From a virus, in the IMG/VR virus record IMGVR_UViG_3300045988_012220, positions 1 through 64,000 of that record: DNA of 64,000 nt; one strand, 5' to 3'. Numbering within the stretch: the stretch's first letter is position 1; each line of letters begins with the position of its first letter. The position numbers were made by a program, and so were the translations under genes. The notes under the pieces are model-generated. The model had not been told where the DNA came from. It saw only the letters and a program-made list of their open reading frames with translations, and did not search any database. This document shows, one piece after another, positions 3,968-49,480 of the stretch.

Positions 3968-4552
3968 TTATGGCATTACTCGTTTAGCGTTTACAATTCC
4001 ATACTCCAACTCAATCATTGGTTTACCAATGCAGTCTTTCACCTGCAAAACTTCTTTACGTCCGTTGATATTGATAACAATTTTATCAGGATACTCTTGC
4101 TGAGCGTTAAGCCTTGGCCCTGACACCCGGGACCCCGCAGGGTCCGCTCCTACGCCATCAGCAATGCTAGAATTCTGACATACTTTTGTCGCAACATCAT
4201 ACAGTCGTTCTACGACCCAGTTAAAGTTTTTATCTTTAACTCCTTTCATCACAATTTCTTGTGATAGTCCTTCCATAATAGCTTTTTGGTTAAGCCCTGT
4301 GGAAAGACTCACTAGTGCATCCCATACCTTAAGAGCGAAGCTCTCGAATGGCAAGGTTTGCTCACAGCCGATTATCTTGTTCCAAAAATGGAATCTAGTT
4401 GAACCCAGAGTAATACTACCATCATCGTTAATGGTATAGATTTTGTACTTCTCTGTATGGTCCAACTTTTCATAAACGGCTGCCTTAATTTTCGGTTCTG
4501 AGAGCATTACTGCTATAAGCTTAACGCTCTTTTCTGTTAAAACAGCCTCCAT
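3968..4552 (-). CDS. hypothetical protein (carries an in-frame GC-rich palindromic insert)
   Basis: ORF track, 194 aa, TAA stop. Confidence 0.7.
   Translation of the reverse strand: MEAVLTEKSVKLIAVMLSEPKIKAAVYEKLDHTEKYKIYTINDDGSITLGSTRFHFWNKIIGCEQTLPFESFALKVWDALVSLSTGLNQKAIMEGLSQEIVMKGVKDKNFNWVVERLYDVATKVCQNSSIADGVGADPAGSRVSGPRLNAQQEYPDKIVININGRKEVLQVKDCIGKPMIELEYGIVNAKRVMP
4111..4155. repeat. GC-rich palindromic segment inside a CDS, sharing the 12-mer ACCCCGCAGGGT with the hairpin at 3796-3807
   Basis: gccttggccctgacacccgggaccccgcagggtccgctcctacgcc in an otherwise AT-rich gene. Contains a GGACCC-CGCA-GGGTCC hairpin and encodes GVGADPAGSRVSGPRL. Confidence 0.5.
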
Positions 4553-11347: not shown

Positions 11348-11406
11348 GAAGAAGCTGGGGAATCGAACCCCAGACCCAAACCAAAAGGCGACGGTACCAA
11401 CTTCTT
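11348..11406 (-). ncRNA. tRNA-like element: 7-bp acceptor stem plus canonical T arm, with a 27-nt linker instead of D and anticodon arms
   Basis: Minus strand AAGAAGT-(TGGTACCGTCGCCTTTTGGTTTGGGTC)-TGGGG-TTCGATT-CCCCA-GCTTCTT-C. Too short (58 nt) for a cloverleaf. Confidence 0.45.
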
Positions 11407-11559
11407 TCTTCTCTCCACTTAGGTAGGAACCACCTAGACTAAACTTACGCTACGCAAGTATAGTCTACAATGTTATTTACATTGTCGTTTAATTTATAGT
11501 ATAGTGCTTAATGTATTTATCTCCTCTGTCTGTCAAAACCAAACACGCCCGTGTAGGCA

Positions 11560-11663
11560 GTTTTACAACATGCCTAGGTTGCCCACGGTCTATTCGCGAA
11601 CGAATCCGTGCTCTGGGATACGTCAACATAGATAGTTTTACAACATATCCAGGTTGCCAAAAC
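11560..11663. repeat. two copies of a hairpin with conserved 11-nt loop GTTTTACAACA followed by AGGTTGCC
   Basis: GGCA-GTTTTACAACA-TGCC-TAGGTTGCC (about 11566-11585) and GATA-GTTTTACAACA-TATC-CAGGTTGCC (about 11632-11658). The stems co-vary. A third loop-like copy lies at 5960-5970. Confidence 0.5.
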
Positions 11664-11690
11664 GAAATCTAAGCGTAGTGGGGAGGAACG

Positions 11691-11719
11691 TGGACGTGAG
11701 CGGAGTCGAACCGCTGTCC
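11691..11719 (-). ncRNA. T-arm minihelix (tRNA 3-prime-half-like)
   Basis: Minus strand GGAC-AGCGG-TTCGACT-CCGCT-CAC-GTCC-A. I found no matching 5-prime acceptor, D or anticodon arms upstream. Confidence 0.4.
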
Positions 11720-11903
11720 AAACAGATTGTTTCATACACACTGTACATTCTTTGTAAATGTTCCGATGATCAGTCAGAACATTCGATTTAAGCCACTTTA
11801 GAGTCGTTCTAAGGCGCTTTCAGCAGCATCGCGGTTAATTACTCCACTTATCTCCTACGGCGCCTCAGAACGCATTAAAACATGGCTAAAAATATATAGG
11901 AAT

Positions 11904-18145: not shown

Positions 18146-18438
18146 TATTTGGCTTCCAGCATATCAACTTTGGATTTTGCTTCCAAGTAATCACTACCAT
18201 AGTCTGTAGCAAGATCTGTATCCATAAGATCAAGATCATGCGTACCATCAAGAGAGTCTAAAAGCGTCTCAGTGCATTTATAGTACTGTTCGTACGCTTC
18301 AATCTTTTTCTCTGCTTTTTTGCCCTTACCTGTATGGTAATTCGACATAAAGCAGGCACCAACAAAACAACCTAATACAGCTCCTACTAATAAGAGATTA
18401 AGATTGTCCATAAAACTGTGTACTTTATTCTTTTCCAT
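18145..18438 (-). CDS. small membrane-anchored protein
   Basis: ORF track, 97 aa, one TM segment. Confidence 0.65.
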   Translation of the reverse strand: MEKNKVHSFMDNLNLLLVGAVLGCFVGACFMSNYHTGKGKKAEKKIEAYEQYYKCTETLLDSLDGTHDLDLMDTDLATDYGSDYLEAKSKVDMLEAK

Positions 18439-19029: not shown

Positions 19030-19107
19030 TAGGGTTCAAAAGAATCTATTTCCGAGTAATGAATCAGACTACACATTGATGCAAGTGTAGTTTCGTCTAG
19101 GTCTCAT

Positions 19108-19276
19108 CAGTGACTATATTATACACTCCCTAGCTGTGTTTAAAATGCCTGTCTTTCCAGGCTGCCAGTTGTTTATCCAACAGTCAACACTTATGGGACG
19201 ACTTACTGCCCACTATCAGCTAACTATATCTTATATGCATCAGTTGTATCGCTCATTTCTTCGAGTCGGGCTGATT
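19108..19276 (-). ncRNA. group I intron-like core signature (weaker candidate)
   Basis: Minus strand has hairpin GGGCAGTAAGTCGTCCC (compare the MCP intron CCC..TTTAAGTCGTGGG), R-like GTGTTGACTGTTGG and S-like TAATATAGTCACTG, with TGACTG/TAGTCA pairing. The element order differs from the MCP intron. Confidence 0.3.
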
Positions 19277-19790: not shown

Positions 19791-20534
19791 TTAGTACGCT
19801 GGAGCGCCTGTTGGTGCGCCTGGAGCACCTGGAGCTGGAGGAACTGGCGATGCTGCCATACCTGGCTGAGCTACATTAGGCTGAGCTGGAGCAGGCTGCT
19901 GTGCTGTAGGCTGCTGACTACTTCCCATCAGTGATGTTGGGTCAAATGCAGGCTGCTGTGTAGTTGTTCCTTCAACAGGGTTGCGGAAGAATCTCTGCTC
20001 CATACGAGCACCTTGTGCATTCTTGCTATATGGCTCAATGTAGTGAGTAACTCCGTTAGCATCAATGAAATCAATCTGTACAAAGACTGAGATGCTGCTG
20101 CGAATTACAGGCTGATTGTTACCATCAACAGTTGGAGTTCCGTCAACGTTGTTTGCATAGCACGGTCCTTTAGCGAACTCGTATTCCTCAAAGCATCCAC
20201 CAGGAAACTCGAGCAACTGACCCCAAGTATCTGGGTCTTGTGCGAACTCTGGTCCAGCTTTGAAGTTTGCAAGGTTGACATCAAATCCTCCCTGATGATT
20301 AGGGTCGGTTGATGGAGTAGCATACTTCTGGAGAACAGTGAAGATATCTGGACTTAAATCATCGTCAAACAGGATGACGTTCTGCTTCTTGCCCAAGAGA
20401 GACTTCTTGTTCTTCATACCAATTACCAAGAATTTACTAATTTTGCCGTCTCTGTTCGCTTTCTTGGCTTGACCGATAGAGAGACTAATTGTACGAAATG
20501 CGCCAATTGCGCTACCTGGAATAATTGTATTCAT
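19791..20534 (-). CDS. hypothetical protein with Gln/Pro/Ala-rich disordered C-terminus
   Basis: ORF track, 247 aa. The last ~55 residues are QQPTAQQPAPAQPNVAQPGMAASPVPPAPGAPGAPTGAPAY. Confidence 0.8.
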   Translation of the reverse strand: MNTIIPGSAIGAFRTISLSIGQAKKANRDGKISKFLVIGMKNKKSLLGKKQNVILFDDDLSPDIFTVLQKYATPSTDPNHQGGFDVNLANFKAGPEFAQDPDTWGQLLEFPGGCFEEYEFAKGPCYANNVDGTPTVDGNNQPVIRSSISVFVQIDFIDANGVTHYIEPYSKNAQGARMEQRFFRNPVEGTTTQQPAFDPTSLMGSSQQPTAQQPAPAQPNVAQPGMAASPVPPAPGAPGAPTGAPAY

Positions 20535-27504: not shown

Positions 27505-27578
27505 AGTCTATTAGTCAAACGGTAAAGACAGCCCGATATAAAGGGAATAGTTAGCAGGTTCGACTCCTGCATAGACTC
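27505..27578 (+). tRNA. tRNA-like gene with canonical acceptor and T arm but a 3-bp anticodon stem and 8-nt loop GATATAAA (anticodon unresolved)
   Basis: AGTCTAT-TA-GTC(A)-..GG..-GAC-A-(G)CCC-GATATAAA-GGG(A)-..-GCAGG-TTCGACT-CCTGC-ATAGACT-C. Confidence 0.5.
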
Positions 27579-27728: not shown

Positions 27729-27799
27729 CGCGGGATGGTGAAATGGTATCACGTGTGGCTCATAACCATAGATTGCTAGTTCGACTCTAGCTCCCGCAA
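27729..27799 (+). tRNA. tRNA-Met (anticodon CAU) with C1.A72 mismatch
   Basis: CGCGGGA-TG-GTGA-AATGGTA-TCAC-G-TGTGG-CTCATAA-CCATA-GATT-GCTAG-TTCGACT-CTAGC-TCCCGCA-A. Initiator, elongator or Ile2 identity is not resolvable by eye. Confidence 0.85.
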
Positions 27800-27952
27800 C
27801 ACTGAGCTTCGATAGTGTGGTGTTCTACATATTTGGCCACCAGAAGCGAAATTGATATCAGAAAAATATGTCGGCTACAATGGTTTGAAGTGTAGCAATG
27901 TAGTTTTAGGCAGATAAAAAGCTCGATAGCCTAAGGTGAGCTTCTACAATAT

Positions 27953-45629: not shown

Positions 45630-46826
45630 ATGGCAAGAAAGAAGAAAAATCCATTAGGTGATTTTGAGGACGCTTTGAGCTCTCTCGGGTTCGGTGGCCA
45701 GGAAGGTGGCGACAGCGTTACAGACATCGATAACCAGGATGTGGTTAATCAGGTGTTAGATGACCCTAATGATGATGTTGAAAATTTAGACAATCCAGAT
45801 GACGATAAGTCTTCTGAGGATAATAAAGATAATAAGAATGTAACTGACGATCCTAATGCTCATGATGATGAGACACAGATCCCAGATAATATTTTAAACA
45901 ATAATACGTCCGACACAACTACAGTTGACAACGAATAGGATGACGACGATGATGATAATGATCAGCAGACTGACACTGATGTCGTAGATCCTGGAGAGGC
46001 AGAACAGATTGGTGCCTTCTTTGACGCATTCGCTGAAGCTAACGGTTGGAGTGTTGATGCAGACGAGAAACCTAAGTCAGTTGAGGATCTCGTAGAGTAC
46101 ATCAAGGATGTCGTAGATGAGAATTCAACACCACAGTACGCCGATGATCGTATTGCTAAACTTGATCAGTACGTAAAGAATGGTGGTAAGTTTGAAGACT
46201 TCTATCAGATACAGCAGAAATCTATGTCTTATGACAGTATAGATTTGGAGGACGAATCTAATCAGAAAGCAGCTGTTCGTGAGTTCTACAGATTATAGGG
46301 TATGGACGACGAGCAGATTAGTCGCAAGATTGAGCGCTATGAAGATGCTGACATGCTGGAAGATGAAGCAGCTGATGCTGTTAATTATCTTAAGGCGTAC
46401 GAGCAGCAACAGCAAGAGTATATGGCTCAGCAACAGGAAGCTCATAGACAATAGCAGGAGCAGCAAGCTGCACAGTTCATGGACGACCTTACCTCTAGTA
46501 TCAATAGTCTTACTAATATTAGAGGTATTAATATCCCAAAGGAGGATAGAAAAGCGTTGTTCGATTATATTACAAGAACTGATGCAGACGGTTTAACAGA
46601 GTATCAAAAGGCTTTTAATAATAATCTTGTTAACAATTTGATAGAATCAGCCTACTTCACAATGAAGGGTGATGCTCTACTGGGCGAGGCACAGCGCAAT
46701 GGTCAGACATCTGCTGCGAGTAAACTTAGACAAATGCTCAAACATCAAACAAAAAATCATACATCATACAATGTTGGGCATGAAAAACAACCTCAGGCAT
46801 GGGATATCGCGTCAAAATACCTATGA
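45630..46826 (+). CDS. acidic scaffold-like protein, 398 aa, in-frame TAGs
   Basis: Track ORFs 45630.. and 46479.. share a frame and join across TAG. Asp-rich N-terminus, Gln-rich coiled coil, immediately upstream of the MCP. Confidence 0.7.
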
Positions 46827-46844
46827 TGAGACAATTAACATATT

Positions 46845-47864
46845 ATGAATAATTCAAGTTCTTTATTAAATAATCTTCAGCTCTACCGTGGTAAGCGTTT
46901 TGCTGACTTGGTAGACGAAAACATGATTGCTAATGCAATGCTTACAAAGCCTCATGAAGTAGCAGGCTTGTTGTCATTGGTTTTTGGTACAAAGGATGAT
47001 GGTATTTCAACTACCATCGACTTGTTAACTGGTGGTCTTGGTTCAACCATGACTATCGAAAACAGAGAGTATGAGTGGTCTGTAATGATTGATGCTGACC
47101 ACGCTGTTAATATCCGCTACGCTAAGTGGAATGGTAAGGAGATTACTCCTAAGTCAATTACAGATGGTTTGACTCCAGGTATTAACAATACTCCTATTTA
47201 TCTTGGTCTTGAGGAGAAGTTCTTCGGACCTGGAGCAATCCTTGCATTTGATAACATCAACTTCCAGGTACGTGTAAACGGTACTCCATACCAGGATGGT
47301 AGCACATGGGTATATGAGACATATGTAGCAGAAGGCTTCCAGGGTTCTTATATCCCTTGTGAGTATTTGCTTCCAGGTCGTCAGGTAGACCGTATCGGTT
47401 CTGCATACGAGGAGTACAGTGATGAGGCAGATATCATCAACTATCAGACTCCATTTAAGATGCGTAATAGCTTGATGACTATGCGTCTTACTTACGATAT
47501 CACAGGTGATGCTTACTCTACAGTATTGGCTATCGCTTTGACTGATCCTGAGACAGGTAAGAAGTCTTATTTGTGGTCTGACTATCAGTATTGGAAGGCT
47601 CTTCGTGAGTGGAAGAAGAGAGAGGAGAAGCAGTTGCTGTTCGCTCACTCTAACCGTAATGCAGATGGTACTTACAATTTGAAGGGTACTAATGGTCGGT
47701 TCGTTCCAATCTCTGCAGGTTTGTTCGAGCAGATTGCTCCAGCTAATGTACGTTACTACACCAAGCTGACTACAGAGTTGTTCGAGGATTACTTGTTCGA
47801 CCTCTGCTATAACATTATCGGTACTAACGAGCGTAAGTTCGTTGCTTTGACTGGTGAGATGGGT
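46845..47864 (+). CDS. major capsid protein, exon 1 (340 codons, no TAG)
   Basis: Track ORF 46845..47867. The TAA at 47865 is the first intron triplet. Ends ...ALTGEMG. Confidence 0.8.
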
Positions 47865-48135
47865 TAACTTTATAGCTCCCTGTAGCAGTAATGTTACTTG
47901 AAAATCTATTTAATTTCTGGGAAGCCCAAACGTTTAAGTCGTGGGTAATCAGAAGCGAAGTCTCGAAAGAGAAACGTTCAACGACTATCCGAAAGGAGTA
48001 GGGTTCAAGCGAACCCGAAATGATAGACATCCTAATTGGGATGAAGATATAGTCTGATCTCATATGAAAGTATGAGGGCTTTTAATGATCGCAATAAAGC
48101 CAATCTGTAGTAGCGATACAGGTTAAACATAAATG
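47865..48135 (+). ncRNA. group I self-splicing intron (ORF-less, 271 nt) in the MCP gene
   Basis: Classic core elements: Q-like TAATCAGAAGC, R GTTCAACGACTA (47976-47987), S AAGATATAGTC (48044-48054), with GACTA/TAGTC forming P7. GNRA/GAAA hairpins. The 5-prime exon ends in T and the intron ends in G at 48135. Splicing keeps the frame (GEMG|IREFDRILKE). Confidence 0.75.
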
Positions 48136-48648
48136 ATTAGAGAGTTCGATCGTATTTTGAAGGAGAAGGCAGCTAGCTTTAACATGATTGATACACACTT
48201 CATTACAGGTTCTGGTCAGGACTTGAAGTTGGGTGGTCAGTTCACAACTTACACTATGACCAATGGTATTGAGTTGACAGTTAAGCGTTGCGCTATGTTT
48301 GATAACATGGAGATGTTCCGTCAGCTTCATCCATTGACAGGTAAGCCATTGATGTCTTACACATTCTTGTTCGTTGACCTCGGTCGTCGTGACGGTCAGG
48401 CTAACATCGTTAAGGTATGTCGTAAGGGTCGTGAGTTCGTACAGTGGTGCACTGGTGGTTCTGTATTGCCAAATGGTTATGCAAACAACATCAACACTAT
48501 GCGTTCTAACAGCCGTGATGGTTACCAGGTACACTTCCTTGGTGAAGAGGGCATCATGTTGAGAAACCCATTGTCATGCGGTATCTTGTACTGTGATGCT
48601 GAAGACCAGGAGTCTATTGCAGTTGAGAACAGAGCAGCAGAGCTCTAA
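48136..48648 (+). CDS. major capsid protein, exon 2 (170 codons, no TAG)
   Basis: Track ORF 48133..48648. An in-frame TAA lies immediately upstream at 48130. Confidence 0.8.
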   Translation: MREFDRILKEKAASFNMIDTHFITGSGQDLKLGGQFTTYTMTNGIELTVKRCAMFDNMEMFRQLHPLTGKPLMSYTFLFVDLGRRDGQANIVKVCRKGREFVQWCTGGSVLPNGYANNINTMRSNSRDGYQVHFLGEEGIMLRNPLSCGILYCDAEDQESIAVENRAAEL

Positions 48649-48727: not shown

Positions 48728-49480
48728 ATGGTAGTTGAATTAAAAATCAGAAAGAAAAATCCCTGGGCTGGATTGTTAAAGTACAAGCATTGCTTCGATT
48801 ATATTGCACCTTACTTTACCAGATCTGGGTCGATATACACAGGTTTAACACCTGAGGACGAAAAGAAATTTGAAAAGGAGCTTGGCTATCCAGAAGGTCA
48901 TCTCGCTAAAAACTCCCCATTCTGGAATACATTCTGTGTTAAGGTTGGCTCTAAGAGCACAATCCTCGATGACTCATTCCCACGTTAGGCTATGATTATT
49001 AAGTTCCTTGAGGGACATAAGAGAGTAGCTACATCACTTGACAAGCTTAATGCCGGAAAGGATTACCTGCTTATTAATAGACAGGCTGAGGCTATTGAGA
49101 AGAATAAGATTAATAAGCTTCGTAGAGACGCTATTATTGCTTTTGGTAAGCTTTCTCTTGAAGAGATGCGTAAGTGTCTTAGATTGTTCGGCGTTAGCGC
49201 TGATACAATGTCTAATGAGCTTGTAGAGTCTACATTGTTCTCATTGGTTGATAAGCAGCCACAGAACTTCTTTACTAAGTGGGTTAACAACAAGACAAAG
49301 GAAACAGAGTTCTTGATCGAGAGTGCTATTGCTAAGGGTATTATCCGCAAGGATAGAACACAGTACTATTATGGTTCTGAGATGCTTGCAGACTCACTTG
49401 AGGATTGTATTGCATACTTAGACGCAAAGAAGAATCAAGACTTAAAGATCTCAATCATTAATCAGGTTGAGAATAAATAA
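48728..49480 (+). CDS. hypothetical structural-module protein, 250 aa, 1 in-frame TAG
   Basis: Track ORFs 48728.. and 48992.. share a frame and join across the TAG at 48986. Confidence 0.75.

Follow-up and report, generated by a model that had tools for sequence, protein, structure and literature searches.

This study asked whether the major capsid gene on a 64,000-nt stretch of viral DNA (the window) is interrupted by a self-splicing intron or is instead read as two separate proteins. In the list of open reading frames (ORFs), ORF 46845-47867 (340 aa) ends in ..FVALTGEMG and is followed by an in-frame TAA (47865-47867), and ORF 48133-48648 opens with MIREFDRILKE in another phase. The intervening length, 271 nt, equals 3 x 90 + 1, which accounts for the phase shift between the two capsid ORFs. 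[quoted passage not shown] Public records and gene callers treat the halves as separate proteins, labelling the 340-aa part "hypothetical protein" and the 171-aa part "major capsid protein", and split capsid calls of this type can mislead capsid-based phylogenies and abundance markers.

The two capsid exons and the intervening RNA

Removal of 47865-48135 had been proposed to join the exons in frame into a protein of approximately 510 aa, and the segments 46845-47864 and 48136-48648 do form an open 510-codon frame. We compared the joined 510-aa protein with Pfam and found that it matched the Crass_capsid family (PF23898) over profile positions 2-495 of 496 (E 2e-207); it also matched PHROG 11589, major head protein. 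A tblastn search of GenBank phages identified single-piece, uninterrupted capsid genes in cr124_1 and cr7_1 (Burzaovirus, Suoliviridae), both with 98.8% identity over residues 12-510. The DNA alignment to the gene of cr124_1, which is Burzaovirus faecalis (Suoliviridae, Oafivirinae), runs to 47864 and picks up at 48136, thereby placing the 271-nt insertion to the base. The empty allele reads GGGT followed by ATCCGTGAG, the window reads GGGT, the 271 nt, and then ATTAGAGAG, and G/IRE is encoded by both (the slash marks the exon junction throughout). The empty target site is GGTGAGATGGGT/ATCCGTGAGTTC, the predicted spliced junction of the capsid mRNA is ..GGUGAGAUGGGU/AUUAGAGAGUUCGAU.., and shifting the boundary by 1 base in either direction fails to give the cr124_1 empty allele.

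The solved structure of PhicrAss001 gp32 (7QOF) aligns through the same junction (TGEMG/IREF versus TGERGAIQF). An alignment of the joined protein to uninterrupted Crassvirales major capsid proteins, suggested in the sequence-only reading as a check, was free of gaps, and the relatives have one protein at this locus and not the two separate proteins that would have spoken for another explanation. The Pfam and PHROG matches, the uninterrupted cr124_1 and cr7_1 genes, the DNA alignment, and the 7QOF structure together identify ORFs 46845-47867 and 48133-48648 as halves of one crAss-like capsid protein. The phage itself is crAss-like and belongs to the Burzaovirus/Oafivirinae part of the Suoliviridae.

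We then compared the intervening RNA with the Rfam model for group I introns (RF00028, Intron_gpI) by using cmscan, another proposed check. The match was full-length and well over the gathering score (47855-48076, plus strand; 93.2 bits versus 50; E 1.1e-22; model positions 1-253 of 253), and no second group I intron was found in the 64-kb window even with a more permissive scan. The core motifs named beforehand, TAATCAGAAGC (47946-47956), GTTCAACGACTA (47976-47987), and AAGATATAGTC (48044-48054), were all located, P7 was confirmed to form from GACTA (47983-47987) and TAGTC (48050-48054), and the claimed GAAA-capped hairpins correspond to UCUC-GAAA-GAGA (47961-47972), UCC-GAAA-GGA (47988-47997), and CUCAUAU-GAAA-GUAUGAG (48059-48076). 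The bases expected at the splice sites were also correct, with U at 47864 and G at 48135. In the model, P1 sets U47864 opposite G47875 and thus puts the 5' splice site after 47864, at the very point at which the reading frame breaks off; G48135 forms the intron end, and all 20 copies extracted from related loci are likewise G-terminal.

The description of the intron as ORF-less held, since the sense strand carries no start codon that opens an ORF long enough for an endonuclease, and reading TAG through did not reveal an endonuclease-sized ORF in the 271 nt either. An antisense ORF of 79 codons (47824-48063) was rejected as a gene because it is broken in the sister lineages described below. These findings strongly suggest that 47865-48135 is a functional group I intron that separates codon 340 of the major capsid gene from codon 341, a reading in which we place high confidence. 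The P7-P7.1 motif GACTATCCGAAAGGAGTAGGG was also tried as a probe of IMG/VR and discarded; its 72 matches were all other phage introns with core identity of at most 80%, and they included neither the window genome nor the 271-nt intron, indicating that the motif is generic to the intron class.

Empty and interrupted alleles at codon 340

Interrupted alleles were obtained by exact look-up of the exon products, and the insert was extracted from 20 loci (L158-L177). The results revealed three homologous intron lineages at one identical site, every copy of which starts with UAA and ends with G. Lineage A (271 nt, no ORF) is represented by identical or near-identical copies in the window, L158, and L168-L177, lineage B (283 or 282 nt, no ORF) by L159 and L167, and lineage C (972 nt) by L160-L166, which carry a gene for an HNH_3 endonuclease. 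This HNH gene, whose protein has 267 aa in L160, starts in the P5 loop and has its body in the P6a loop; at intron positions 95-898, it overlaps the core strands P5', P4', and P6, and given TAG readthrough, it would extend through P7-P8. In L167 (logan SRR8845380, intron 4021-4302), the 5' end spanning P1-P2 is identical to lineage C and the remainder is lineage B, a chimeric makeup that marks L167 as a recombinant and shows that introns at the codon-340 site exchange parts.

The exon products were widespread: of the collection blocks in the index, 107 list the 340-aa product and 114 list the 171-aa product. Many of the contigs with the split gene are approximately 102 kb long, have 140-650x coverage, and come from independent assemblies; ERZ1311601, ERZ652918, and GCA_948254535.1 are among the accessions with this allele. 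The exact 340-aa product was present on 54 contigs versus 688 for the exact uninterrupted cr124_1 protein, which places the interrupted allele in the minority, at roughly one-tenth. The codon-340 site was empty in 82 of the 82 readable capsid loci from INPHARED (L001-L005) and IMG/VR (L006-L085). No interruption at codon 340 was found among the best 80 IMG/VR matches to the capsid protein, and no INPHARED record had an interrupted codon-340 site or carried the 271-nt intron.

Across loci, interruptions of the capsid gene fall at codons ~128, ~285, and 340. Four loci from close relatives (L173-L176, e.g., ERR7365202_247 and ERZ27279256) have two capsid introns, one at codon ~128 (approximately 860-880 nt, HNH/NUMOD4-containing) and the 271-nt ORF-less intron at codon 340.

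Predicted fold and splicing of the capsid RNA

The features of the locus, including the predicted helices, are listed in Table 1. We analyzed covariation in 15 distinct sequences from the three lineages, with the two large loops of lineage C trimmed; the alignment also reached 10 nt into exon 1 and 8 nt into exon 2. Without any prior structure, RNAalifold recovered P1 with its U.G pair, P2, P4, P5, P6, P6a, P7, P7.1, P7.2, P8, P9, and P9.2 with 22 compensatory pairs. After the P3 pseudoknot and P9.1 were added, 99.5% of 1093 pair positions were standard and 25 of the 75 pairs were compensatory, although the covariation comes from three lineages only and thus reflects fewer independent events than these cell counts suggest. 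In controls, sliding the 3' partners by 1-3 columns lowered pairing to 38-45%, and none of 500 shuffles matched the observed values. P3 and P7 are invariant and are therefore supported by pairing and by fit to the model rather than by covariation; J8/7, P7, and J4/5 are invariant across the three intron lineages.

Table 1. Positions of the capsid exons, the intron, and its predicted structural elements in the window.
Feature	Position	Strand	Remarks
Capsid gene exon 1	46845-47864	+	340 codons, ending ..TGEMG; last base U47864; cr124_1 DNA alignment stops exactly at 47864
Group I intron, ORF-less	47865-48135	+	271 nt, IA-type architecture; starts with in-frame TAA, terminal omegaG 48135; RF00028; exact insertion relative to intron-less allele
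P1 hairpin	47861-47878	+	Exon GGGU + intron UA (47861-47866) with internal guide UAGCUC (47873-47878); U47864.G47875 wobble; cmscan, RNAalifold
P2	47882-47897	+	6 bp, GUAA (GNRA) loop; 2 compensatory pairs
P3 5' strand UCUAUU	47905-47910	+	Pairs with GAUAGA 48022-48027; pseudoknot with P7; 100% paired in 15 sequences, nearly invariant
P4	47915-47920 / 47949-47954	+	1 compensatory pair
J4/5 GAAG and J5/4 UAA	within 47915-47954	+	cmscan, RNAalifold
P5	47925-47928 / 47942-47945	+	3 compensatory pairs
P6 (GCG/CGU) and P6a (UCUC-GAAA-GAGA)	47955-47977	+	RNAalifold
P7 5' strand GACUA	47983-47987	+	Pairs with UAGUC 48050-48054; guanosine-binding helix; invariant, 100% paired
P7.1 UCC-GAAA-GGA	47988-47997	+	Between P7 and P3'; insertion relative to Rfam consensus
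P7.2 GGGUUC-AAGC-GAACCC	48001-48016	+	Between P7 and P3'; 3 compensatory pairs; insertion relative to Rfam consensus
P3 3' strand GAUAGA	48022-48027	+	cmscan
P8 short hairpin CAUCC / GGGAUG	48028-48043	+	3 compensatory pairs
J8/7 AAGAUA and P7 3' strand UAGUC	48044-48054	+	Invariant in three lineages
P9	48059-48076	+	7 bp, GAAA loop; 2 compensatory pairs; Rfam model stops here
P9.1	48077-48082 / 48096-48101	+	3 compensatory pairs; beyond the Rfam match but part of the intron
P9.2	48102-48109 / 48117-48124	+	Loop GUAGCGA; 3 compensatory pairs; beyond the Rfam match but part of the intron
AUG at intron 3' end	48133-48135	+	Makes exon 2 resemble a separate 171-aa ORF; ACG in lineages B and C
Capsid gene exon 2	48136-48648	+	170 codons + stop, starting IREFDRILKE

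A single-sequence minimum free energy fold of 47855-48143 gave nearly all of the same helices (z = -2.97 versus 200 shuffles). The 59 nt on the 3' side of the end of the Rfam model (48076) contain the hairpins P9.1 and P9.2, followed by AAACAUAAAUG. P1 is short, with 4 exon pairs and 2 intron pairs, and its U.G wobble at the 5' splice site is kept in all 15 distinct sequences of the three lineages. By inspection, no convincing P10 between the guide and exon 2 was found in the 271-nt lineage, and a 4-bp P10 (UCUA/UAGA) is possible solely in the lineage that carries the HNH gene. Many group I introns can do without P10.

In place of P3, RNAalifold, which cannot draw pseudoknots, paired AAUC (47903-47906) with GAUU (48135-48138). 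Both strands are invariant, so covariation cannot choose between this pairing and P3; P3 was preferred for the main fold because it fits the family model, and the AAUC/GAUU pairing was discarded. The loops of P9.1 (AUCGC) and P9.2 (GCGAU) could form a kissing contact in the window, but this contact was set aside because it is not kept in the other lineages. The 7-nt loop of P9.2, (G/U)UAGCGA at 48110-48116, is kept in the three lineages (L159-L177) while the stem below it changes in a compensatory manner, which suggests that the loop makes a tertiary contact; no conserved partner for it was identified in the three lineages.

The class features of IA introns are P2, P9.1/P9.2, and the helices P7.1/P7.2 placed between P7 and P3' (PMC3984707), and all are present here. 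The predicted architecture is that of subgroup IA, the usual phage type, with the finer label IA2 given by resemblance in architecture alone.

This anatomy is consistent with guanosine-initiated, two-step splicing of the capsid pre-mRNA. In the first step, with the intron folded within the pre-mRNA, P7 would bind an external guanosine that attacks after U47864, held by the U47864.G47875 pair in P1. In the second step, the free 3'-OH of exon 1 would attack after G48135, joining ..GGU to AUU.. and restoring the motif TGEMG/IREF. In RNA that remains unspliced, translation would end at the first intron codon, TAA, and yield a truncated 340-aa product. Since unspliced RNA would give only these 340 aa, the complete capsid protein would need splicing, and we infer that the capsid gene relies on self-splicing of its RNA.

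A true group I intron that needs a protein helper, such as a host or phage RNA chaperone or a maturase, and that is perhaps spliced in a timed or regulated manner rather than constitutively, is an explanation that we regard as unlikely. Proteins assist the splicing of many natural group I introns in vivo, which could not do without them; P1 is short, P10 is not clear, and the sister intron of lineage C encodes a protein. Against a helper, the peripheral stabilizing set is complete (P2, P7.1/7.2, P9.1/9.2, and four GNRA loops), and the correct fold emerges even from plain energy minimization. Moreover, nothing similar to the HNH protein of lineage C occurs in the 64-kb window, where no match was better than E 0.39, and HNH endonucleases are not known to act as maturases.

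A decayed, splicing-dead relic, which would make the capsid gene a pseudogene and the genome defective or helper-rescued, is very improbable. The weak P10 and the lack of an endonuclease gene, a state that late stages of the homing cycle should show, would agree with decay, but the core helices are all intact, compensatory changes have been kept across three lineages, and J8/7, P7, and J4/5 have not varied. The same allele recurs in many independent samples, on ~102-kb contigs at 140-650x, and the exons are under strong purifying selection; the 98.8% aa identity to intron-less genes holds, and the differences adjacent to the site are synonymous.

That the capsid is built without splicing from two separately translated polypeptides, one of 340 aa and one of 171 aa that begins at the ATG at 48133, is scarcely credible: this ATG (48133-48135) is in frame with exon 2, and gene callers and GenBank TPA records do enter the 171-aa part as a "major capsid protein" of its own, but the ATG consists of the last three bases of the intron and is found in lineage A only, the ACG in both sister lineages leads callers to a 154-aa ORF that loses conserved residues, the break falls inside the conserved TGEMG/IREF of a single HK97-type chain that is continuous in 7QOF, and the intervening 271 nt form a ribozyme with covariation that a simple intergenic spacer would not need. 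The AUG ending in lineage A alone, with ACG in B and C, indicates that the start codon of the 171-aa ORF is accidental. The preferred reading thus remains that of one capsid gene interrupted by a group I intron that is probably spliced as described above.

Probable past mobility of the intron, known introns, and other features of the genome

We investigated synonymous divergence near the insertion site. Divergence peaks over the opening 30 nt of exon 2, where intron-carrying and empty alleles differ by 18-21% at synonymous positions, compared with approximately 4.5% gene-wide, and pairs of empty alleles differ by 5.9% in the same 30 nt. The coexistence of alleles with and without the intron, the homologue that carries an HNH gene, the chimeric intron of L167, and the peak of divergence in exon 2 are suggestive of a mobile past and of homing. 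The intron most likely arrived by homing or recombination at the DNA level. The 271-nt intron would now be kept passively or through endonucleases supplied in trans.

Group I introns in the major capsid genes of Delta-group and Zeta-group crAss-like phages were reported in 2021 by Yutin et al. (PMC7886860), who detected introns through endonuclease domains (PMC7886860). A 2023 review identifies the Delta group with the Suoliviridae and repeats the report of capsid-gene introns (PMC10136315). The intron described here shares the phage family, the host gene, and the intron class with these known Suoliviridae cases, and the GenBank genomes cr131_1, cr50_1, cr118_1, and Dulem virus 42 have split capsid genes. 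The position is different: the known interruptions are at codon ~128 (cr131_1, cr50_1, and cr118_1) and codon ~285 (Dulem virus 42), whereas the present intron lies at codon 340, which becomes the third intron site in the Suoliviridae capsid gene. The known crAss-like capsid introns were found by an endonuclease domain, an approach that a 271-nt ORF-less intron would escape, and endonuclease-based catalogues of crAss-like introns will therefore miss ORF-less introns.

Full-text literature searches returned no description of an ORF-less intron at the codon-340 capsid site. Because capsid-gene introns in crAss-like phages have already been reported, what is new here is the insertion site and the ORF-less form. 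A specialist would be only moderately surprised by a codon-340 intron, and the finding leaves general knowledge of group I introns and of crAss-like phages unchanged.

Among GenBank phages, the closest DNA matches to the intron were introns of Bacillus and Staphylococcus phages, with 70-74% identity in the core. With phage IA2 introns (T4 td, nrdB, and nrdD; the Bacillus SPO1-type DNA polymerase introns; and those of Staphylococcus phages Twort and K), the intron shares the core, P7.1/P7.2 between P7 and P3', and P9.1/P9.2 on the 3' side, as well as the in-frame stop at the intron start and a location in an essential gene, within a motif that is highly conserved. Unlike these, it resides in the capsid gene of a crAss-like phage that infects Bacteroidota, is compact at 271 nt, and has no ORF; its subgroup is taken from architecture only.

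In "collaborative homing", ORF-less introns are mobilized by a free-standing endonuclease (PMC3984707). The codon-340 site resembles that system in that it harbors an ORF-less intron and is at the same time the target of an endonuclease-carrying relative, with empty, ORF-less, and endonuclease alleles all present. It differs in that the endonuclease lies inside the homologous intron of other genomes and is not free-standing beside the target. The 271-nt intron may likewise be mobilized in trans, or it may simply be maintained.

The coexistence of empty, ORF-less, and endonuclease alleles in human-gut populations offers a handy natural system for the study of intron spread and loss. We also put forward, tentatively and as a doubtful possibility, that the four allele states (empty, two ORF-less, and HNH-carrying) and at least one chimera, all at one capsid-gene site of an abundant gut-phage lineage, capture the homing cycle in nature. 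The 271-nt intron would then be no dead end but would either keep the HNH endonucleases of rival phages from cleaving the capsid gene or move in trans at co-infection. If true, intron status would be a factor in the competition among crAss-like phages.

Several other features of this genome and its relatives were observed. The genes that flank the capsid gene on the plus strand (45630-46826 and 48728-49480) are broken by in-frame TAG codons (e.g., 46452-46454 and 48986-48988) and are single 398-aa and 250-aa calls in relatives, which suggests that TAG is a sense codon, probably for Gln. The capsid exons have no TAG, and ARAGORN found no tRNA with a CUA anticodon in the 64 kb. In the HNH gene of lineage C, a codon in mid-gene is CAG in L160 and TAG in L161, L162, and L164 (the members that were translated), and the fifth codon is also TAG. 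The CAG/TAG swap lends direct support to the assignment of TAG to Gln in this phage group.

A permuted (two-piece) tmRNA gene was identified on the minus strand at 11354-11780 by ARAGORN, with the tag peptide DNVNNIVDYTCVA*, and by Rfam (RF04321, tmRNA_permuted; 57.3 bits versus a threshold of 47). A RAGATH-1 hammerhead ribozyme was found on the same strand at 19062-19140 (78 bits versus a threshold of 56.3; E 1.6e-11), in a gap that has no ORF of at least 90 aa and is flanked by two minus-strand ORFs, of which one ends at 18438 and the other starts at 19791. A weak tRNA-like match on the plus strand (27505-27578; Rfam tRNA, 37.9 bits, E 2e-4), for which ARAGORN made no call, has an anticodon arm that looks irregular by eye (stem of 3 bp, loop of 8 nt) and is located 150 nt upstream of tRNA-Met (27729-27800).
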